A DNA stretch of 64,000 nt, from positions 3,497-67,496 of the forward strand of contig JAFSVH010000017.1 of NCBI GenBank assembly GCA_017450215.1, given 5' to 3'. Origin of the DNA: Bacilli bacterium. GTDB taxonomy: Bacteria; Bacillota_I; Bacilli_A; ML615J-28; CAG-698. Under the pieces are notes generated by a model that ran no database searches, was not told where the DNA came from, and saw only the letters and a program-made list of their open reading frames with translations. Position 1 is the first letter of the stretch, and every line of letters begins with the position of its first letter. The position numbers were made by a program, and so were the translations under genes. Below, piece by piece: positions 980 through 58,789 of the stretch.

Positions 980-3900
980 TTATTTAATCTTAACGATATC
1001 ATCGCCAAACATTTTTATAGTTTGTTCTATTTTTTCTTTGTTCTTATCACCATCATCTGATATCTCTTCAACATTTAATCCAACAATGTTAAATGGGGAT
1101 AACTTTGCCCTTTTAACTCCCATCTGATATTGACTTACATATTCCTCACGTTTTTCTAGCCAAACATCAAGTGGTAGAGCTAAGTAATTATAATTAGCAC
1201 TCAATTTTGAATATAAAAATTTAATAGCCTTTGTTTTAAATGCACCCCTCATAACTTCATTACATTTAGTAACAGTTGGATAAGTAATTACAAATTCCTT
1301 GTTTCCGACAGCTTCAATCTTTCCTTGACTTAATGATTGAGCTACTGAATACATGGATGGTTCAACACCTCGCATTAATGTTTTCCAGATTTCTAAGACT
1401 CTCGCTTTATCGTTTTTAGCATTTTTATCTTGTGCATCAAACAACAATTTTTCTAAATCTTCAATATTGTAACGTGCGAATTTGTCATTTGCTTCTGGGT
1501 CTGCAGGAACAATAATTTCGTTTTGTTTTACAGTTGCAGGTTCGTTTTCAACAACATCTTTAATTACAAGACTAGATCTAGTTTTATTAATAACCTCTTC
1601 ATGGTTGCTTTCATCATAAAATTGATTAATTACCTTATCTTTTTCAATAGGCTTGAAATCAATATTCTTTTTATCTTCTATATCTTCATTATTATTCTTA
1701 TCTTCTACAACTTCTTGAGGCTTTTCTTCTTTAATACTTACAGTATCATCAAACAAACCTTCTTGAATTTCTGGTTCTTTATTTTCGGTAGATTCTGTTT
1801 TCTCTTTTTCGTCCTGCTTTTGTGTTTCTTCGATATCAATATTAAAATCAAAGAAACTTGTTTGTTTATAAACAGGTTTTTCTTCAGTGTCGCTTACAGC
1901 TTGTTTTTCATCTAAAGATGCTTCAACATCATTATTTTCTACTTCCTTTTCCTCTACTACTTGAATAGAATCATCTTCTTTAGTTTCGATAACAGGTTCA
2001 TCTTTATGCTCTTTGGCTATATTTTCAACACAAGATTCTTTTTCTTCTTCATCTTTAGCTAAATCACCAAAATCACTCTTAAAGTCTTTTTCTTCTGAAA
2101 TATCAAAATCAAAAATACTCATTTGACCTTTTGGACGCTTTTGAGTTTTTGCTTTTTCTTGCTTTTCAAGTGTGCTTGCTTTTAACTTTTCTTCTAAAGC
2201 AAGTTTGCTAGCGATAAGGTCATATATTTGTCCTTCGATTTTTTCTAATCTTTGATTTATCTCTTCATTATCTTTTTCACTTTGAACATTGACGCTTCCT
2301 TCTTGCTTGTTTTGAGCAAATGTTGAAAGTTCACTTGCAAATTCTTTTTTGATTTCGTTCTTTGCGGTTTCAATTTTTAAATCAAAAGCAGAAGTATCAT
2401 ATTCAATTGCTTCGTTTGGCTTTATAGAATTGATTTTTTCTTCTAATTCCTCAAGCTTTTTATTGAATTCATCATTTAATAAATTATTATCTTGACTTGC
2501 ATTTTTATTTTGCTCGCTTTCTAATTTATCGATTTTGCTTTGAATAAAATCAATCTTAGCTTCAATATCATTAACATCAATATCAACATAATTGTTTTCT
2601 TTTTCGTTTTCTTTCTTTTGCAATTCAGAAATCAATTCTTGTTTGATATCATTTAATTTGTTTTGAAATTCTTCAACATTCAAACTCGAATCATTATTAG
2701 ATGGTTTAGCACTATTCTTTTCTAATTCATTAATTTGCTTTTTGATATCAGCTATTTCTTTTTGAATTCTCTCTTCATTAACGCTTGACTCACTACCACC
2801 TTCAATATCAATTCTTTGACCATTTTCTAATGCGTTAATCTTGGCTTCAATATCAACAAATTTACTAGCAACATCAGATTCAAGTTCAGTCAAACGAACT
2901 GAAGAAGAAGATTTATTTTCAGCTTCTAGTTTATTTTGATGCTCGTTTACTGTGTTTTCGATATCATTAACCTTCTTAGCAAGAGTAGGTAATTCAAATT
3001 TATTTAACTCTAATACAATTTGATTTAATCTATTATCTAAATTTTTCACTTTCTCGTTATCAACGTTACTTGTAACCATATCGCCTGAAAATGATGCATC
3101 CATTAATTTGTTCTCTAATTCATCCATTCTTTTTACAACATTCAATTCTTCATTGTTAATTGAAGACATTCTAATAATTGCTATTTCTAAATAGATTCCA
3201 GGAGAATTGCTATATTTAATCTTATTTTGGATATCGCATAAAACTTCTATAAAGAAAATGATTTTTGTGTTAGCAATCTTGAAAGCAAGATTTTGAAATT
3301 TTTCTTTTTCAAAAATGTACTTATTAATTTTTTTGTTTCCGATACTCTTAAATAACATCAAATCACGGCAAAATAGTAACATTCCATTAACAATCTTATT
3401 AATCTCTTTGCCTTCTTTAATTAATGAGTTTACAACATCAAGAGCATTGTTAGCATCTTTAGAATCAATAAACGACATCAAATTACACATAACTTCAGCA
3501 TTTATACTTCCAGTAATTGTGTTTACATCATCAATTGTTATTTCCTTAGTTCCATATGATATAGTTTGATCTAAGATACTTAATGCATCACGCATGCCTC
3601 CATCAGCAATTTCACCAATCAAATCAATAGCCTCATCACTAATTTGTACATTTTCATTGTTGCAAACTTCTCTTAAACTTTTTGATATCTTATCAACATT
3701 TATTGGCTTAAACTCATATCTTTGACAACGTGAGATTATTGTTGAAGGAATCTTTTGAGGTTCGGTTGTCGCTAAAATAAATATTACATGTTTAGGTGGT
3801 TCTTCTAATATCTTCAATAAAGCATTAAAAGCACCCGTACTAAGCATATGAACTTCATCTATAATGTAAATTTTATATTTTGAACCACTTGGTAAAAATT

Positions 3901-4237
3901 TAACACGTTCTCTTATATCACGTATTTCATCAACACCATTATTACTTGCAGCATCAATTTCAATTACATCAGGACTTATGCCTTCGCTAATTTCTTTACA
4001 TACATAGCAATCGCAACAAGGTTCTCCATTAGGTTTTAAATCGATACAATTTAATGCCTTAGCAAAAATTCTTGCTACAGATGTTTTACCAGTTCCACGT
4101 GGTCCACAAAATAGATAAGCATGAGATATTTTATTGTTAATTATTGCGTTTTGTAACGTTTTTACAACAGCTTCTTGACCAACAACTTTATTAAATGTTT
4201 GAGGTCTATAAGTTCTATATAATGCTTGATATGCCAT
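980..4237 (-). CDS. dnaX: DNA polymerase III subunit tau (DnaX), unusually long: about 1085 aa with a roughly 550-aa internal coiled-coil/acidic insertion
   Basis: N-terminus MAYQALYRTYRPQTF...GPRGTGKTS (Walker A) and the zinc module CCDCYVCKE. C-terminal tau domain V-like region (WKTLMRG...PSMYSVAQSL). Start moved to the ATG at 4235-4237, which has an AAAGGAG RBS. The extra 37 codons in the ORF track lie over the asnS promoter. Confidence 0.85.
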   Translation of the reverse strand: MAYQALYRTYRPQTFNKVVGQEAVVKTLQNAIINNKISHAYLFCGPRGTGKTSVARIFAKALNCIDLKPNGEPCCDCYVCKEISEGISPDVIEIDAASNNGVDEIRDIRERVKFLPSGSKYKIYIIDEVHMLSTGAFNALLKILEEPPKHVIFILATTEPQKIPSTIISRCQRYEFKPINVDKISKSLREVCNNENVQISDEAIDLIGEIADGGMRDALSILDQTISYGTKEITIDDVNTITGSINAEVMCNLMSFIDSKDANNALDVVNSLIKEGKEINKIVNGMLLFCRDLMLFKSIGNKKINKYIFEKEKFQNLAFKIANTKIIFFIEVLCDIQNKIKYSNSPGIYLEIAIIRMSSINNEELNVVKRMDELENKLMDASFSGDMVTSNVDNEKVKNLDNRLNQIVLELNKFELPTLAKKVNDIENTVNEHQNKLEAENKSSSSVRLTELESDVASKFVDIEAKINALENGQRIDIEGGSESSVNEERIQKEIADIKKQINELEKNSAKPSNNDSSLNVEEFQNKLNDIKQELISELQKKENEKENNYVDIDVNDIEAKIDFIQSKIDKLESEQNKNASQDNNLLNDEFNKKLEELEEKINSIKPNEAIEYDTSAFDLKIETAKNEIKKEFASELSTFAQNKQEGSVNVQSEKDNEEINQRLEKIEGQIYDLIASKLALEEKLKASTLEKQEKAKTQKRPKGQMSIFDFDISEEKDFKSDFGDLAKDEEEKESCVENIAKEHKDEPVIETKEDDSIQVVEEKEVENNDVEASLDEKQAVSDTEEKPVYKQTSFFDFNIDIEETQKQDEKEKTESTENKEPEIQEGLFDDTVSIKEEKPQEVVEDKNNNEDIEDKKNIDFKPIEKDKVINQFYDESNHEEVINKTRSSLVIKDVVENEPATVKQNEIIVPADPEANDKFARYNIEDLEKLLFDAQDKNAKNDKARVLEIWKTLMRGVEPSMYSVAQSLSQGKIEAVGNKEFVITYPTVTKCNEVMRGAFKTKAIKFLYSKLSANYNYLALPLDVWLEKREEYVSQYQMGVKRAKLSPFNIVGLNVEEISDDGDKNKEKIEQTIKMFGDDIVKIK

Positions 4238-4341
4238 AAAGATACTCCTTTTTATACTTATTTCGATTATATCACATATATTCAAAATAATAAAGTTTAA
4301 GTTATTTATTTTTGTTTTAATATCCCTACACACTATATTGC

Positions 4342-4370
4342 TTGACAAATGAAATTATAATAATTATAAT
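4342..4370 (+). promoter_or_regulatory. Sigma-A type promoter (TTGACA, 17 nt spacer, TATAAT) for the asnS T-box leader
   Basis: TTGACA at 4342-4347, 17-nt spacer, TATAAT at 4365-4370. Confidence 0.55.
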
Positions 4371-4379
4371 AAAATCACA

Positions 4380-4632
4380 ATGATAATAAGCGTTGAAGAG
4401 AAAAGTAATTATATTAACAGAATCAGTGATATGAGGATAGTGTGAACTCATACAAGTTATATAACGAAAGAACACTCTGAGCTATAGGAAGAACAAAGTA
4501 GAACCTATCGTATTTCTGCGTTAAAGAATAATTGAGTGCAAAAAATCATTTTTTGAAATAAGGTGGTACCGCGATATTTCGTCCTTAACATTTAAATCCT
4601 TTCGATTTAATTTGTTAAGGCTTTTTTTAAGG
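4380..4632 (+). promoter_or_regulatory. T-box riboswitch leader of asnS, with terminator hairpin and U-tract
   Basis: Conserved T-box sequence AGGTGGTACCGCG at 4561-4573. Terminator stem CCTTAACA (4583-4590) / TGTTAAGG (4613-4620) followed by CTTTTTTT. An aminoacyl-tRNA synthetase gene follows. Confidence 0.75.
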
Positions 4633-4640
4633 AGGATAAA

Positions 4641-6032
4641 ATGAAAGCTATTAATTTTAAAAAATTACAAAATGAATTTAAATCATTCGAAAACAAAGAA
4701 GTGTTGTTACAAGGATGGATTAGAACAAACAGAAACCAAAAAGAATTTGGTTTTATTAATTTAAATGATGGTTCAACAGTTTCTAACTTACAAGTTGTAT
4801 ACGATAAAACATTAAACAATTTTGAAGATGTTTCAAAATATCGTGTAGGCTGTGCATTAAGTGTATACGGAATAGTTGTACTAACACCTCAAATGCAACA
4901 ACCATTTGAATTAAAAGCAACAAAAATAATTCTTGAAGGTGATTGTCCTGAAAACTATCCAATTCAACCAAAAAGACATACTAAAGAATTCTTAAGGGAA
5001 CAAGCACATTTAAGAAGTAGAACAAATTTATTTAATGCTACTTTCAAAATTAGAAGCTTATTAGCTTATGCTATTCATAATTTCTTTAGAGAAAAAGACT
5101 TTTTATATGTCCATACTCCATTAATTACCGCTAATGATGCAGAAGGCGCAGGAGAAGTGTTCCAAGTAACTACTCTTGATTTAAACAAACTACCAAAAGA
5201 TGATAAGGGAAATGTAGATTTCTCAAAGGACTTCTTTGGAAAGCAAGCAAACCTTACTGTTTCTGGACAATTAGAAGCTGAAACATTTGCATTAGCATTT
5301 AAAAATGTTTATACATTTGGACCAACATTTAGGGCTGAGAACTCAAATACAACAAGACATGCTTCAGAATTTTGGATGATTGAACCAGAAATGGCTTTTG
5401 CTGATTTAAACGATGATATGGACATCATTGAAGAAATGGTTAAATATGTTGTGAAATATGTTTTAGATAATGCAAAAGAAGAGATGATGTTCTTTGAAAA
5501 GTTTGTGTGCCCTGGAAAAATCAAGCAATTAGAAGAATTGCTTTCAAGTCATATCGTTAGATGTGATTATGAAGAAGCAATCAAAATCTTTAAAAATTCA
5601 AAGAAAAAATTTGAAGTTGATATCAACTATGGTGATGATCTAACAACAGAACATGAAAAATATTTAACTGATGAATATTTTAAAACTCCTGTTTTCTTAA
5701 CAAATTGGCCTAAAGAAATTAAAGCATTTTATATGAAGTTAAATCCTGATGGTAAAACTGTGGCTGCTGTAGACTTGTTAGTTCCTGGAAGTGGTGAGTT
5801 AGTTGGCGGAAGTCAAAGAGAAGAAAACCTAGACTTATTAATGAAGAGAATGGAAGAATTACATATTCCTCAAAAAGGAATGGAATGGTATTTAGATTTA
5901 CGTCGCTTTGGCAGTGTTTACCATTCTGGATTTGGTCTAGGATTTGAAAGATTAATTATGTATGTTACTGGTATTGAAAATATTAGAGATTCAATTCCAT
6001 ATCCTAGAACTCCAAGAAATTGTGAATTCTAA
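4641..6032 (+). CDS. asnS: Asparagine--tRNA ligase
   Basis: 463 aa. Class IIb synthetase with N-terminal OB fold and motifs 1-3 (FRAENSNTTRHASEFWMIE...GFGLGFERL). RBS AAGGAGG 7 nt upstream of the ATG. Confidence 0.9.
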   Translation: MKAINFKKLQNEFKSFENKEVLLQGWIRTNRNQKEFGFINLNDGSTVSNLQVVYDKTLNNFEDVSKYRVGCALSVYGIVVLTPQMQQPFELKATKIILEGDCPENYPIQPKRHTKEFLREQAHLRSRTNLFNATFKIRSLLAYAIHNFFREKDFLYVHTPLITANDAEGAGEVFQVTTLDLNKLPKDDKGNVDFSKDFFGKQANLTVSGQLEAETFALAFKNVYTFGPTFRAENSNTTRHASEFWMIEPEMAFADLNDDMDIIEEMVKYVVKYVLDNAKEEMMFFEKFVCPGKIKQLEELLSSHIVRCDYEEAIKIFKNSKKKFEVDINYGDDLTTEHEKYLTDEYFKTPVFLTNWPKEIKAFYMKLNPDGKTVAAVDLLVPGSGELVGGSQREENLDLLMKRMEELHIPQKGMEWYLDLRRFGSVYHSGFGLGFERLIMYVTGIENIRDSIPYPRTPRNCEF

Positions 6033-53223: not shown

Positions 53224-53799
53224 ATGAAAAGTGAAAATAAATCATTTATGATTTTTGCGTGTAATTCTAAAGAAGTATCTTCTTTACTTAAAACTGTTTT
53301 AATTGATTCATTAAAGCAATCTAAAACAAAATATGAATTTATTAATAAAGATGGTGAAGATTATATTTTATTGATAAATAAAGATATAACAGATGATCTT
53401 AAAGAAACTGCGTTATCACTACTTCAAGATTTAGATAATGATATATCAGTATTAGAAGGTTTTAGATATAGTGACAAAGAACAATTAGAAGGCATCTATA
53501 AATGCTTTAAAGATTATAATTCAATCGGTTATACAAAAATTGCTGATATCATATTAAAGCTTTCTGATGAAGATTTAAAACCAATTAAGGAAATGCTACT
53601 TTCAAAATTAAAAGACAATTATTTGAAAGAGATAATAATTGGAATGTTTAAGTCTAATTTAAATATAAGTAAAGCAGCCAGTGTTGTTTATATGCATAGA
53701 AACACTATAAACAATAAACTTGATACAATACAAAAAGAAACAGGATTGGATATCCAAAATTTCTATGAAGCAATGGCTATGAATAGGATATTAAATTAA
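53224..53799 (+). CDS. Putative transcriptional regulator with a PucR/CdaR-type C-terminal HTH
   Basis: C-terminal NISKAASVVYMHRNTINNKLDTIQKETGLD resembles the PucR HTH_30 region. GGAGGAAG RBS. Confidence 0.4.
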   Translation: MKSENKSFMIFACNSKEVSSLLKTVLIDSLKQSKTKYEFINKDGEDYILLINKDITDDLKETALSLLQDLDNDISVLEGFRYSDKEQLEGIYKCFKDYNSIGYTKIADIILKLSDEDLKPIKEMLLSKLKDNYLKEIIIGMFKSNLNISKAASVVYMHRNTINNKLDTIQKETGLDIQNFYEAMAMNRILN

Positions 53800-54203: not shown

Positions 54204-54237
54204 TAAGATTGTGCATATTGCACAATCTTTTATTTTT
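54204..54237 (+). terminator. Intrinsic terminator (AAGATTGTGCA-tat-TGCACAATCTT plus T-run)
   Basis: 11-bp perfect stem. Confidence 0.65.
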
Positions 54238-54312
54238 ATATAGTCAAAAAAAAGATATAGTGGTAAAATCGCTATGTATAAAAAAATATGTTAATGTTTA
54301 AGGAGGAATTTT

Positions 54313-55431
54313 ATGGCAACAGTAACATTGAAGAATATTAATAAGGTTTATGATGGCAACGTTCATGCTGTTGTAGATTTTAATCTACATGTAAAAGATC
54401 GTGAATTCGTAGTATTTGTAGGACCTTCTGGATGTGGTAAAACTACTACATTAAGAATGATTGCAGGACTAGAAGATATCACATCTGGTGAATTAAGAAT
54501 TGATGATGAAATCGTTAATGACGTTGCACCAAAAGATAGAAACATCGCGATGGTTTTCCAAAGTTATGCTTTGTATCCACATATGTCAGTTTATGATAAC
54601 ATGGCATTTGGTTTGAAATTACGTAAGTTTGGACGTGATGAAATTGACAGACGTGTACAAGATGCAGCTGACATTTTAGGATTAAAACCATTATTACAAA
54701 GACGTCCAAAGGCTTTGTCAGGTGGTCAAAGACAACGTGTTGCATTAGGAAGAGCTATTGTTCGTGATGCTAAGGTATTCTTAATGGACGAACCACTATC
54801 TAACCTAGATGCTAAACTACGTGTACAAATGAGAACAGAAATCATAAAGATTACTGAAAGATTAGGAATTACTACAATTTACGTAACACATGACCAAACA
54901 GAAGCTATGACAATGGCATCTAGAATCGTTGTTATGAAAGATGGTTTAGTTCAACAAATCGGTGCTCCAAAAGATATTTATGATTTCCCTAACAATAAAT
55001 TCGTTGGTGGATTCATTGGTACTCCACCTATGAACTTCTTAGAAGGAAAAATTACTGAAGATGGTTACTTCTTAACAGGTGATCATAAAGTTGGTTCATA
55101 TAAGATTAAGATTCCTGCAAATAAATTCAAAATGTTAGAAGATCAACATTATATTGAAAAAGATATTATTATGGGAATTAGACCTGAAGATATTCATGAT
55201 GAGAATGTTGTTGCTGCAACTTATCCTGAAGCAAAAGTTAAATTAAAAGTTGATGTATCAGAATTATTAGGTAGTGAAACTTTAATCTATGTTACAATGG
55301 CTGCACAACCATTAGTAGCAAAAGTTAATGCTAGAGTTGATGTTAAGATGCATGACGAAATCGAACTTGCTTTTGATATGAATAAGTGTCATTTCTTCGA
55401 TCCTAACACTGAACTTAGAATCGTTAGATAG
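54313..55431 (+). CDS. msmK: Sugar ABC transporter ATP-binding protein (MsmK/MalK-like), orphan multitask ATPase
   Basis: Walker A GPSGCGKTT, signature LSGGQRQRVALGR and a C-terminal TOBE/MalK regulatory domain. No permease gene is adjacent. Confidence 0.8.
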   Translation: MATVTLKNINKVYDGNVHAVVDFNLHVKDREFVVFVGPSGCGKTTTLRMIAGLEDITSGELRIDDEIVNDVAPKDRNIAMVFQSYALYPHMSVYDNMAFGLKLRKFGRDEIDRRVQDAADILGLKPLLQRRPKALSGGQRQRVALGRAIVRDAKVFLMDEPLSNLDAKLRVQMRTEIIKITERLGITTIYVTHDQTEAMTMASRIVVMKDGLVQQIGAPKDIYDFPNNKFVGGFIGTPPMNFLEGKITEDGYFLTGDHKVGSYKIKIPANKFKMLEDQHYIEKDIIMGIRPEDIHDENVVAATYPEAKVKLKVDVSELLGSETLIYVTMAAQPLVAKVNARVDVKMHDEIELAFDMNKCHFFDPNTELRIVR

Positions 55432-55606: not shown

Positions 55607-56806
55607 ATGAAGAAGACTATAAGAGATGTAAATTTAAAAGATAAGAAGGTATTAATTAGAGTTGATTTCAATGTACCTATGAAGAATGGTGTTATTACTA
55701 ACGATAATAGAATCGTTCAAGCTTTACCTACAATTAATTATGCATTAGAAAATGGTGCAAAAGTAATTCTATTCTCTCATTTAGGAAGAGTTAAAGAAGA
55801 AGCTGATAAGGCTGCTAATAGTTTAGCTCCAGTTGCAAAGAGATTAGAAGAATTATTAAATAAAAAAGTATACTTTGTTCCTACTACTCGTGGAAAAGAA
55901 TTAGAAGATGCTGTTAACAATATGAAAGTTGGCGATGTTGTAATGTTCGAAAACACAAGATGGGAAGATGTTCCAGATAAGAAAGAATCTAAGAACAATC
56001 CTGAATTAGGTGCATATTGGGCATCACTTGGTGATGTATTTGTAAATGATGCTTTTGGTACAGCTCATAGAGCACATGCTTCTAATGCTGGTATCGCTGC
56101 TAATATCAAAGATTCAGTTGCTGGATTCTTGATGGAAAAAGAAATTAAGTTTATTGGTGATGCAGTTGATAATCCAGTTAGACCATTCGTAGCTATTTTA
56201 GGTGGTGCAAAAGTTTCTGATAAAATTTCTGTTATTGAAAACTTATTAACTAAAGCTGATAAGATTTTAATTTGTGGTGCTATGGCTTATACATTCTATA
56301 AGGCTCAAGGCTGGGAAGTTGGAACAAGTAAATGTGAAGATGATTTTGTTGAATTTGCAAAAGGCTTATTAGAAAAAGCAAATGGTAAAATCGTATTACC
56401 ATGTGATACTGTAGTATCAGATAAATTCCCAGAAGATGGTGATGTTATTGTTAAGAAGACAGTTGCATCAAATGCTATTCCTGCTGATATGATGGGCTTA
56501 GATGTTGGAATGGGAACAATTGAATTATTCAAAAAAGAATTACAAGGTGCTAAGACTGTTGTATGGAATGGACCTGCTGGTGTGTTTGAAGTAAAAGAAT
56601 TTGCTGTTGGAACAAATGCCATTTGTGAAGCATTAGCTGAACTTGAGGGTGCTACAACTATTATTGGTGGTGGAGATTCTGCTTCTGCTGCAATCAAGTT
56701 AGGATATGAAAAGAAATTCACTCATATCTCTACAGGTGGTGGAGCAAGTTTAGAATATTTAGAAGGTAAGGAATTACCTGGTGTTGCTTGTATTAATGAC
56801 AAGTAA
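55607..56806 (+). CDS. pgk: Phosphoglycerate kinase
   Basis: 399 aa with full PGK signatures (RVDFNVP, GGGASLE). Confidence 0.92.
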
Positions 56807-56844
56807 TTAATAATTAGTGTTTAAAAATTTAATAGGAGGTATAT

Positions 56845-57090
56845 ATGACAAGCGTATTACATATTAAAAATACATCTGGTATTGATGCTCGCTTAGCTCA
56901 ACAAATCGTTCAAAAAGCTTCTGAATATGAAGCTGATATGGTTTTAAGCTATTTAGGCAAAGAAGTAGACCTAAAGTCAATCCTTGGAATCATGTCTCTT
57001 GCTGTTTTAGAAGGTGCTGAAATTGAAATTATTGCGAAAGGAAATGATGCTAAAGAAGCAATCGATGCTTTAGCTCAAATGATTAAATAA
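56845..57090 (+). CDS. crh: HPr-like protein lacking the catalytic His15 (Crh-like paralog, H15D) with Ser46 retained
   Basis: Aligns with HPr and Crh: SGIDARLAQ in place of SGIHARPAT, and KSILGIMSLAV (Ser46 region) is conserved. 81 aa. Confidence 0.7.
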   Translation: MTSVLHIKNTSGIDARLAQQIVQKASEYEADMVLSYLGKEVDLKSILGIMSLAVLEGAEIEIIAKGNDAKEAIDALAQMIK

Positions 57091-57845
57091 TGAGAAAACC
57101 TATTATTGCTGGAAATTGGAAAATGTTTAAGACTAGAGATGAAGCATTACAATTCGTTTTAGCTGTAAACGAAAAGATGCCATCTATAGATAAAGTTGAT
57201 AGTGTTGTTTGTGCTCCTGCAATTCTTTTAAGAGATCTTGTAAAGAGACAAGGTGATAATTTAAGAATTGGTGCACAAAATATGCATTTTAAAGAAAGCG
57301 GAGCTTACACTGGTGAAATTTCACCTATTATGCTTACATCAACTGGTGTTACTTATGTTATTATTGGACATAGTGAAAGAAGAGCAATGTTTAATGAAAC
57401 TGATGAATCTTGTAATTTGAAACTTCATTCTGCATTTGAACATGGTTTAAAACCTATTTTATGTGTTGGTGAAAGTTTAGAACAAAGAGAAGGCGGAAAG
57501 ACAGAAGAATTATTATCATTCCAATTAGAAAATGATCTTAAAGGTTTAACCGCTGATCAAGTTAAAGAATTAGTAATTGCTTATGAACCTATTTGGGCTA
57601 TTGGTACAGGAAGAACTGCAACTAGTGATGTTGCTGATGATACTTGTGGATTCATTAGAGAAAAAGTAGCTCAATTATATAGTAAAGAAGTTGCTGAAGC
57701 TATTAGAATTCAATATGGTGGAAGCGTAAAAGTTTCAAATATTGATGAATTGATGAGTAAACCAAATATCGATGGTGCATTAATTGGTGGTGCTAGTTTA
57801 ATTGCTGAAGACTTTATTAAATTAGTTAACGCTGCTTTAAAATAA
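57090..57845 (+). CDS. tpiA: Triosephosphate isomerase
   Basis: Motifs IAGNWKMF, IGHSERR and AYEPIWAIGTG. Confidence 0.92.
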   Translation: MRKPIIAGNWKMFKTRDEALQFVLAVNEKMPSIDKVDSVVCAPAILLRDLVKRQGDNLRIGAQNMHFKESGAYTGEISPIMLTSTGVTYVIIGHSERRAMFNETDESCNLKLHSAFEHGLKPILCVGESLEQREGGKTEELLSFQLENDLKGLTADQVKELVIAYEPIWAIGTGRTATSDVADDTCGFIREKVAQLYSKEVAEAIRIQYGGSVKVSNIDELMSKPNIDGALIGGASLIAEDFIKLVNAALK

Positions 57846-57884
57846 TTAAATAGTAAAATAAATACTCATTTTTATTCTGCATTT

Positions 57885-58011
57885 ATTTTCAGGGCAAGGT
57901 GAAATTCCTGACCGGTGGTAAAGTCCACGAGCTGTTATATAAGCATGAAATGGTGAAATTCCATTACCGATAGTATAGTCTAGATGAAAGAAATAAAAGA
58001 AAGGATTATAC
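57885..58011 (+). promoter_or_regulatory. Structured 5' leader (candidate riboswitch aptamer of unassigned class) with two hairpins presenting identical UGAAAUU loops
   Basis: GGUGAAAUUCC occurs twice (57899-57909 and 57952-57962), each closing a short stem. A third hairpin GUGG-UAAAGU-CCAC lies between them. A terminator follows and the downstream gene is a putative transporter S component. Confidence 0.4.
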
Positions 58012-58050
58012 AATAGTGCCCATTATAACCTTATTTGGGCACTATTTTAT
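58012..58050 (+). terminator. Leader (attenuator) terminator: ATAGTGCCC-loop-GGGCACTAT plus T-run
   Basis: 9-bp stem at 58012-58020 / 58037-58045 followed by TTTTATTTATATT. The ORF-track N-terminus MPIITLFGHYFIYI is the translation of this hairpin. Confidence 0.55.
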
Positions 58051-58057
58051 TTATATT

Positions 58058-58789
58058 ATGAAAACAACAATAAAAGCCTTAGCTGCTGGATTAATATTAG
58101 TAGCTATTGTAACTATATCATTGATCTATTTCTTTAAAAAAGAAAACAAAGATAATTTAACAAAAAAGCAAAAAACAAGAAAAATGGCGATGGTGTCAAT
58201 ATTGAGTGCTTTATCTGTCGTGCTATACTTTTTAAAATTCCCTTTACCATTTTTTGTTAGTTTTTTAGATGTTCAATTTTCTAATTTGCCAGTGTTTCTA
58301 GCAAGTTTTATGTTTGGACCTGTTGAAGGAATTGTTGTAGCATTAATTAGAACTTTAATTAAAATTCCTTTTTCTTCAACAATGTGTGTTGGTGAATTAC
58401 AAGATTTAATTATTTCGATTACTATATCTTGTATTTCGGGAATAGTATATTTTAGAAATAAAACAAGAAAGGGAGCATTAATTTCTCTCATACTTGCTAG
58501 TGTATCTTGGGTTTTGATTGCTTTATTATCAAATGCCTTTATTTCTGTTCCTTTTTACATTAAATTTATGTTTAATGGAGATAATACAGTTATTGTTAAT
58601 ATGATTAAAGCAGTAATACCAAATACTACAAGCGAAAACTATTTAATGAATTATTTATTACTATCATGCTTACCTTTTAATATATTGTTAAGCAGTGTGG
58701 TGAGTTTAATAACTTTCTTGGTGTATAAAAGAACATCAATCTTATTTAAGAAATTTATTTATAAAGATGATATGCAAGGAGATATCTAA
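58058..58789 (+). CDS. ECF-transporter S component-like integral membrane protein (substrate unknown)
   Basis: Start moved to the ATG at 58058 (MKTTIKALAAG). Multi-TM protein with the S-component-like segment FLDVQFSNLPVFLASFMFGPVEGIVVALI. Confidence 0.45.
   Translation: MKTTIKALAAGLILVAIVTISLIYFFKKENKDNLTKKQKTRKMAMVSILSALSVVLYFLKFPLPFFVSFLDVQFSNLPVFLASFMFGPVEGIVVALIRTLIKIPFSSTMCVGELQDLIISITISCISGIVYFRNKTRKGALISLILASVSWVLIALLSNAFISVPFYIKFMFNGDNTVIVNMIKAVIPNTTSENYLMNYLLLSCLPFNILLSSVVSLITFLVYKRTSILFKKFIYKDDMQGDI

Follow-up and report, generated by a model that had tools for sequence, protein, structure and literature searches.

HPr and its described variants

Carbon regulation in Firmicutes centers on HPr, whose well-studied roles all presuppose a working PTS. 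The canonical protein of Firmicutes and Mollicutes, encoded by ptsH, is a substrate of HprK/P, and in most Firmicutes the phosphorylation of His15 and that of Ser46 are mutually antagonistic (PMC3526391). [quoted passage not shown] Such inducer exclusion at MalK-type ATPases has also been suggested for Listeria. In these cases, HPr is a normal PTS protein whose gene is unlinked to those of the transporter.

HPr-type proteins without a transport role have been described as well. [quoted passage not shown] Its roles are purely regulatory and comprise co-repression with CcpA, inhibition of MgsA, and binding of GapA. Crh carries Gln15 together with Arg17-Pro18, is encoded in the yvcI-yvcN context, and coexists with a canonical HPr. 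Regulation-only PTS remnants offer a second comparison. Acholeplasma laidlawii reportedly possesses EI, HPr, and HprK without any EII. In Brucella, EI-Ntr, NPr, and HprK form a regulation-only PTS (PMC2937029). The HPr and NPr proteins of these organisms thus serve regulation instead of sugar transport, yet they retain both His15 and Enzyme I. Finally, His15Asp has been engineered into HPr from E. coli (PDB 1CM2, 1CM3, and 3CCD), B. subtilis, L. monocytogenes, and T. saccharolyticum. All of these are laboratory phosphomimetic or probe mutants of an otherwise canonical HPr with Arg17-Pro18.

Here, we describe a locus in which the same substitution occurs at the same position as a natural, clade-wide state, accompanied by changes in the surrounding residues and by Asn, Gly, or Thr alternatives. 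The protein shares fold, length, the K-S-I-[LM]-G-x-M-S-L motif, and Pfam/TIGRFAM membership with canonical HPr. It differs in lacking His15, in being unlinked to ptsI, and in lying inside a glycolysis/ABC-ATPase operon. Without His15, it would have no PEP-dependent phosphocarrier role. As in the inducer-exclusion systems, a Ser46-intact HPr is paired with a MalK-type ATPase bearing OB/TOBE regulatory domains; in the present case, the likeness lies in the genes, which are placed together in one operon. His-less regulatory HPr (Crh), regulation-only PTS remnants, and the NCBI HPr-family annotation of the gene were already known. The new element is a His-less HPr of the Asp type that is independent of these, extends across a clade, and has become fixed in such an operon. 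Literature searchable on HPr of this kind (RF39, Acholeplasma, and Mollicutes) yielded no account of the arrangement, which agrees with the original prediction that it is undescribed.

An HPr-family protein with aspartate at the histidine position

The window analyzed is a stretch of 64,000 nucleotides with a G+C content of 28.7%, which includes the origin region dnaA-dnaN-recF-gyrBA. The contig that contains it is 155,587 bp long and comes from an annotated MAG that NCBI labels 'Bacilli bacterium'. The gene of interest encodes 81 residues (Table 1). Its accession there is MBQ7275846.1, with the product name 'HPr family phosphocarrier protein', and its neighbors on either side are MBQ7275845.1 (Pgk) and MBQ7275847.1 (TpiA).

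Homology to HPr over the full length, as originally proposed, is borne out by profile searches. Pfam PTS-HPr (PF00381) matches with 86.2 bits (E 1.5e-24; cut-off 23) over profile positions 5-80 of 81, and TIGR01003 matches with 80.9 bits (cut-off 47.9). The score against the HPr equivalog model PRK13780, 86.7 bits, falls under its cut-off of 110. B. subtilis HPr is the top PDB sequence match (65 bits) and aligns residue for residue. In this alignment, Asp14 stands opposite His15 (SGIDARLAQ versus SGIHARPAT) and Ser45 opposite Ser46 (KSILGIMSLAV versus KSIMGVMSLGI). HPr numbering is used below for both positions unless stated otherwise.

An AlphaFold2 model, built with a 60-sequence family alignment as input, reached a pLDDT of 86.4 and displays the element order beta-alpha-beta-beta-alpha-beta-alpha. 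The 40 best Foldseek matches of this model in the PDB are all HPr, Crh, or NPr (TM 0.64-0.82), and HPr structures are matched with TM values of 0.75-0.82. The protein is hence predicted to adopt the HPr open-faced beta-sandwich fold.

The original prediction described the protein as Crh-like. The label holds by analogy only, as the window protein resembles HPr more than Crh and has neither Gln15 nor the crh gene context. Crh scores 55 bits in the PDB search compared with 65 bits for HPr, and BLASTP identities are 40% and 54%, respectively. NCBIfam PRK13782, which we take to be the Crh model, gives 72.4 bits against a cut-off of 123. By these scores, the window protein is not a Crh orthologue. 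Its Asp15 (Asn, Gly, or Thr in relatives), variable position 17, and Met, Leu, or Lys at position 18, in an msmX-pgk-hpr-tpiA setting, further distinguish it from Crh, and its loss of His15 looks like an event independent of the one in Crh.

A sequencing error at codon 14, the objection that the original prediction raised against itself, is ruled out. Six ruminant-gut metagenome assemblies, each independent of the others, encode the same protein; their gene copies differ by 0-2 synonymous changes, the GAT codon is identical in all six, and histidine is missing from the whole clade.

A conserved operon with glycolytic and sugar-ABC genes

The gene lies between pgk, directly upstream, and tpiA, as first noted. 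The tpiA start codon shares one base with the stop codon of the HPr-like gene (TAATG), an overlap that suggests translational coupling of the two. No convincing terminator was found in the window sequence within the msmX-pgk-hpr-tpiA unit, whose limits are set by a strong terminator-like hairpin and a promoter-like site on one side and by a riboswitch on the other (Table 1).

Table 1. Features of the HPr-like gene, its operon, and the flanking units; positions refer to the window
Feature	Position	Strand	Basis or remark
PucR-type HTH_30 regulator, candidate regulator of the operon	53224..53799	+	Pfam PF13556, 36 bits
Intrinsic-terminator-like hairpin closing the upstream unit	54205..54229	+	11-bp stem, then T run
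Promoter-like site with extended -10, before msmX	54241..54269	+	TAGTCA-17-TAAAAT, TG before -10; consensus match only
msmX/ugpC-like MalK-type ABC ATPase, first gene	54313..55431	+	Pfam ABC_tran, OB_MalK, TOBE_2; MBQ7275844.1
pgk, phosphoglycerate kinase	55607..56806	+	Pfam PGK, 510 bits
RBS of the HPr-like gene, AGGAGG	56834..56839	+	5 nt before ATG; read from the sequence
His-less HPr-family gene, 81 aa	56845..57090	+	ATG start; Pfam/TIGRFAM profile matches
Asp14 codon, GAT	56884-56886	+	aligns to HPr position 15
Ser45 codon, TCA	56977-56979	+	aligns to HPr Ser46
tpiA, triose-phosphate isomerase	57090..57845	+	Pfam TIM, 318 bits
FMN riboswitch, start of the next unit and 3' limit of the operon	57881..57999	+	Rfam RF00050, 108 bits against a gathering threshold of 66
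ECF riboflavin S component, after the riboswitch	58016..58789	+	Pfam ECF_trnsprt, ECF-ribofla_trS

The gene order msmX-pgk-hpr-tpiA is kept in 14 species-level GTDB MAGs (loci L007-L020), in which identity to the window copies amounts to 81-93% for MsmX, 73-87% for Pgk, and 59-82% for TpiA. Members with Asn15 (L016-L019) or Gly15 (L190) display the same order. A distant Asp15 relative (P0256; 42% identity) is likewise encoded between pgk and tpiA; at that locus, a comK-like gene is inserted between msmX and pgk, and rpsD lies downstream. Homologues of the PucR-type gene stand upstream of msmX in L007-L009 and L011-L019. Five species have a gene for a SpoIIE-like membrane PP2C phosphatase ahead of the PucR-type gene; in two loci, L012 (positions 76-2163) and L018, it is contiguous with the operon.

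Family conservation and the residue at position 15

The figures given here rest on 120 listed homologues (58-89% identity) out of 129 relatives retrieved from 5.8 billion proteins. Their carriers are uncultured Bacilli with AT-rich DNA, from gut and environmental sources, and form one clade. In a library of clusters at 50% identity, the whole His-less family falls into one cluster (102.6 bits), well apart from other HPr: the next score is 80.7 bits, and canonical HPr scores no higher than 66. Among the 150 nearest cluster representatives, 18 lack His15 and carry Q, D, S, N, Y, E, I, or T instead, mostly with the Lys-Ser motif retained. Judged from these representatives, loss of the histidine is recurrent among HPr homologues and not peculiar to Bacillus Crh.

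Replacement of His15 by Asp, noticed originally in a single protein, extends across the clade. Position 15 is Asp in 98 of the listed homologues, Gly in 11, Asn in 10, and Thr in one, and it is His in none. Asp is thus the majority state and probably the ancestral one, being kept even in the relative with 42% identity. The neighboring columns have diverged along with it. The Arg17 column contains K, R, L, Q, or A (Arg in the window protein) and the Pro18 column M, L, or K, whereas 127 canonical HPr representatives have H, R, and P at these three positions in 100%, 93%, and 72% of cases. With His15, Arg17, and Pro18 all relaxed, the family alignment indicates that the phosphocarrier function has most likely been lost.

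The opposite holds for the Ser46 region, whose conservation had been predicted from the window protein. The equivalent serine is present in 120 of 120 listed homologues, and KSILGIMSL is essentially invariant among them, the single exception being R at the Gly49 position. This surface fits the Firmicute HPr motif given above. In the family alignment, hardly any variation occurs over positions 39-55, K(E)VDLKSILGIMSLAVL, and DLKSILGIMSLAVL is invariant across the family.

Such a pattern bears on the idea that the gene is a functionless ptsH remnant decaying after PTS loss. The degenerate catalytic histidine and its neighbors are what that idea would predict. Yet the reading frames are intact throughout the clade, dN/dS lies between 0.08 and 0.22 in eight pairs and so points to purifying selection, 27 columns are invariant in the 60-sequence alignment, and the RBS is strong. 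The operon position is also fixed even where the species' Pgk is only 73% identical. This conservation already contradicts a remnant and leaves the idea scarcely credible.

The role of position 15 itself can be approached from its residue spectrum. The modeled helix 1 starts with residue 15 (protein numbering), so that Asp14 would be its N-cap. Asp, Asn, Gly, and Thr are classical good helix N-cap residues. An N-cap role would thereby explain the spectrum, which fits this role better than mimicry of phospho-histidine. Members with Asn, Gly, or Thr make up 18% of the family and share the operon and the constraint of the Asp members, although these three residues lack a negative charge. On these grounds, we read position 15 as structurally constrained only. 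Neither phospho-histidine mimicry nor an acyl-phosphate site can be a general property of the family, and the original suggestion that Asp might imitate phosphorylated His15 does not accord with the members that carry Asn, Gly, or Thr.

The same substitutions weigh on a related proposal, namely that Asp15 is itself a phospho-acceptor that relays an acyl-phosphate from Enzyme I. Engineered E. coli His15Asp HPr is said to accept and donate phosphoryl groups weakly, and the E. coli structures listed above represent this protein with its post-phosphorylation succinimide. The prevalence of Asp, probably the ancestral residue and present even in the relative with 42% identity, would also suit an acceptor. 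However, Arg17, which is essential for phosphotransfer, is variable, Pro18 is gone, and no ptsI is found near any of the loci, whereas the canonical HPr genes of the same scan adjoin ptsI. Taken with the Asn, Gly, and Thr members, these features make an Asp acceptor highly improbable.

Searches for HprK, CcpA, Enzyme I, and a second HPr

The B. subtilis HprK, CcpA, and PtsI proteins were used as tblastn queries; the ptsI search was validated on L022-L024 and the HprK search against PDB 1KO7. None of hprK, ccpA, and ptsI was detected in the window, in approximately 10 kb past its ends, or in approximately 10 kb around the gene in L001-L020. Canonical HPr loci recovered in the same scan (L022-L024 and L027) have ptsI adjacent. 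No second or canonical HPr was seen in approximately 84 kb of the source genome or in approximately 20 kb per related genome, and the His-less protein may be the sole HPr of its genome.

These results are relevant to the view that the protein is a second, Crh-like HPr that HprK phosphorylates at Ser46 and that then joins a CcpA-type LacI regulator as its co-repressor, Asp15 possibly standing in for phosphorylated histidine. Crh itself demonstrates that a His-less HPr can serve CcpA, and PDB 1ZVV is among both the sequence and the fold matches of the window protein. The Ser46 motif is kept, and the His15Asp versions of HPr from S. salivarius and L. monocytogenes can still accept phosphate at Ser46 (PMC3526391). 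On the other hand, His15 in its unphosphorylated form has a direct part in the binding of CcpA, and a His15Asp exchange should disrupt this binding (PMC3526391). The Arg17 column is variable in the family. Arg17 of HPr reportedly makes contacts with CcpA. Neither a LacI-type gene nor hprK occurs near any His-less HPr locus, and the protein is nearer to HPr than to Crh, as described above. The cre consensus has no site in the 64-kb window, a result that weighs little, as 0.7 sites are expected by chance and the count is uninformative. Variants without a negative charge do not suit the mimicry component either. The CcpA cofactor role put forward in the original prediction is therefore disfavored, and we consider the Crh-like alternative as a whole rather improbable.

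Whether the clade possesses HprK matters more for the remaining readings. Metagenome contigs were scanned with an AT-biased back-translation of the pattern E-[IV]-R-G-x-G-[IV]-[IV]-[ND]-[VI], which recovered 120 HprK loci. By cluster, these belong to Fusobacterium, Anaeroplasma/Anaeroplasmataceae, Acholeplasmataceae, and 'Tenericutes bacterium MZ-XQ', with further carriers in Clostridium sp. CAG:307, CAG:288, and gut 'Bacilli bacterium'. Two groups were considered as the clade's own and rejected. The largest cluster, with an ABC ATPase 58-66% identical to that of L008/L011, is the 615-aa double HprK of Fusobacterium. The rumen-type HprK (L034, L051, and L112) belongs to Anaeroplasma/Anaeroplasmataceae, whose HPr has a canonical His15.

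WGS prefixes, accession adjacency, and contig identity gave no link between an HprK and a His-less-HPr genome; for accession adjacency, the HPr entry MBQ7275846 was compared with HprK entry MBQ7642180 and others. Sample co-occurrence proved unreliable, as two genes of one contig returned non-overlapping sample lists. In four lineages, lgt and a HAD hydrolase lie directly downstream of hprK, and uvrA precedes it in two of the four; no uvrA or lgt devoid of an adjacent hprK was present in the His-less HPr loci. Since HprK is general in the neighboring lineages, phylogenetic bracketing makes its presence in the clade likely.

Should the clade lack HprK, the main rival would apply. It holds that the HPr fold has become a kinase-independent accessory, acting as a constitutive partner or subunit of Pgk/TpiA or of MsmX and using the former Ser46 surface for binding. 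The tight and ancient pgk-hpr-tpiA linkage, with translation coupled to that of tpiA, would suit such a subunit, as would the lack of HprK in any sequence tied to the clade. The same HPr surface is also known to bind many partners, and PDB complexes with glycogen phosphorylase, Rsd, and FruR were among the matches. Against it stand the retention of the exact HprK-substrate motif K-S-I-L-G-I-M-S-L with its serine in every listed homologue, the occurrence of HprK in all neighboring lineages sampled, and the linkage of a PP2C phosphatase to the cluster in some species. We regard the accessory role as unlikely, though as the most probable of the alternatives.

Proposed function and mechanism

The full-length homology, the Asp at position 15, the Ser46 context, and the operon position are all conserved clade-wide, which makes a regulatory HPr co-expressed with glycolysis, as originally envisaged, a reasonable reading of the sequences. 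Our preferred version, to which we give about an even chance, is a regulatory-only HPr that has lost PTS phosphotransfer, is switched at Ser46, and acts on the sugar-ABC ATPase, on glycolytic enzymes, or on both.

In this mechanism, the HPr-like protein would be made from one transcript together with the MalK-type sugar-ABC ATPase, Pgk, and TpiA. Its Ser45 (Ser46 in HPr) would be phosphorylated reversibly according to the glycolytic state, most likely by an HprK/P-type kinase. The fact that His15Asp HPr is still Ser-phosphorylated in other species indicates that Asp15 does not exclude an HprK substrate; nevertheless, given the antagonism between His15 and Ser46 phosphorylation, a standard HprK might work more slowly on an Asp15 protein. 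Either the Ser-phosphorylated or the unphosphorylated form would then contact protein targets directly and not via CcpA, with position 15 presumably reduced to capping helix 1.

One of the two best target candidates is the co-encoded MsmX-type ATPase, whose control would result in inducer exclusion of ABC-imported sugars in the manner known from L. casei and L. lactis. The other, in addition or instead, is glycolytic enzymes at the triose-phosphate level. Precedents for the latter exist in that GapA activity is affected by HPr, consistent with direct interaction (PMC12445079), and a study of GapA with HPr and Crh (Pompeo 2007) is cited in the same paper. In addition, non-phosphorylated Crh inhibits the methylglyoxal synthase MgsA (PMC9631020). 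Methylglyoxal synthase and TpiA share the substrate DHAP. Both target candidates derive from the gene neighborhood and from precedent elsewhere, and gene order alone can be historical.

The reverse reaction may involve the phosphatase gene found beside the operon in some species. In M. pneumoniae, a PP2C phosphatase is reported to dephosphorylate HPr(Ser-P), and by this precedent the linked SpoIIE-like PP2C is a possible phosphatase for the Ser-phosphorylated form. A fuller picture can be drawn tentatively; taken as a whole, it is rather unlikely. Reduced and probably PTS-less Bacilli would operate a minimal, CcpA-independent carbon control, in which HprK phosphorylates the His-less HPr in response to flux, with possible reversal by PP2C, and HPr directly throttles MsmX, triose-phosphate enzymes, or both. 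If this were true, HPr would have given up its transport role entirely and become a flux-feedback subunit dedicated to glycolysis.

Ecological and mechanistic relevance

With its histidine gone, its serine switch frozen in place, and its gene set in a glycolysis/sugar-ABC operon, this family would be a natural case in which the regulatory half of HPr stands by itself. Such a case would provide a clean system for studying the action of P-Ser-HPr without PTS or CcpA, be it inducer exclusion at an ABC ATPase or direct control of glycolytic enzymes. The question bears on how abundant uncultured Bacilli of the rumen and gut prioritize sugars. The 14 MAGs with the conserved operon come from rumen, rabbit and human gut, digesters, groundwater, and soil.

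His-less HPr and tandem-domain HPr and HprK proteins

The distribution of His-less HPr homologues is wider than Crh alone. Of the 150 closest representatives of HPr clusters (proteins P0256-P0384), 18 have no His15; at position 15 they carry Gln (5), Asp, Ser, Asn, Tyr or Glu (2 each), Ile or Thr (1 each), or a gap (1). Most of these 18 representatives retain the Lys-Ser46 motif. When the representative library is ranked by similarity to the HPr-like protein of the window, the second-best match is P0241, a 594-aa protein in which two tandem canonical HPr domains, both with GIHARPA, follow a middle region that carries Sel1/TPR-like repeat motifs as judged by eye.

Tandem organization also occurs in HprK. 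The metagenome locus L110 encodes a double HprK of 615 aa, with a degenerate P-loop (GYSNARKG) in the N-terminal copy and a canonical C-terminal copy. Twenty-three similar loci were found (e.g., L035, L046, and L095), and the protein derives from Fusobacterium (polymorphum, hwasookii, canifelinum). L117 encodes a 651-aa protein with the same architecture.

Neighbours upstream of msmX

A small PucR-type HTH_30 protein is encoded upstream of msmX in nearly all His-less HPr loci (the window and the related loci L007-L009 and L011-L019) and may regulate the msmX-pgk-hpr-tpiA unit. In five of the related loci, the HTH_30 gene is closely preceded by a gene for a SpoIIE-like PP2C phosphatase of ~695 aa, with a long, hydrophobic and apparently membrane-spanning N-terminal region. 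In L012 and L018 the phosphatase gene runs on into the operon without a break, whereas the window lacks it. This phosphatase is a candidate P-Ser phosphatase for the HPr-like protein.

The distant lineage with Asp15, represented by L188, differs in that msmX and pgk are separated by a gene of the ComK family.

Other features of the window

The FMN riboswitch lies immediately 3' of tpiA and 5' of the ECF S component gene, and a short minus-strand ORF predicted there probably arises spuriously from the riboswitch sequence. Two T-box leaders were identified, each preceding an aminoacyl-tRNA synthetase gene.

A very AT-rich, non-coding stretch of ~1.3 kb, with a ParA-like/RHH-like gene pair on the minus strand to one side and yaaA-recF to the other, may form part of the replication-origin region because of the positions of dnaA and dnaN. 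The DnaX (tau/gamma) homologue comprises 1122 aa, with a Lys/Glu/Asn-rich low-complexity insertion of ~600 aa between its ATPase core and C-terminal domain.

Coordinates of features in the window and in other loci
Feature	Locus	Position	Remark
dnaX homologue	window	980-4348 (-)
T-box leader	window	4384-4589	upstream of class II aminoacyl-tRNA synthetase gene (Asn/Asp type), 4641..6032
dnaA	window	14793
dnaN	window	16375
AT-rich stretch	window	18700-20048
(TACA)n array	window	18731-18784	inside AT-rich stretch
T-box leader	window	26077-26255	upstream of serS, 26330..27607
HTH_30 gene	window	53224-53799
Short ORF	window	57846..58013 (-)
FMN riboswitch	window	57881-57999	Rfam RF00050, 108 bits
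RibU-like ECF S component	window	58016..58789	downstream of FMN riboswitch
SpoIIE-like PP2C	L012	76-2163	PF07228
SpoIIE-like PP2C	L018	656-1864	PF07228
SpoIIE-like PP2C	L008, L009, L011	around 3000-3980	PF07228
Double HprK	L110	9041-10888
ComK-family gene	L188	782-1198
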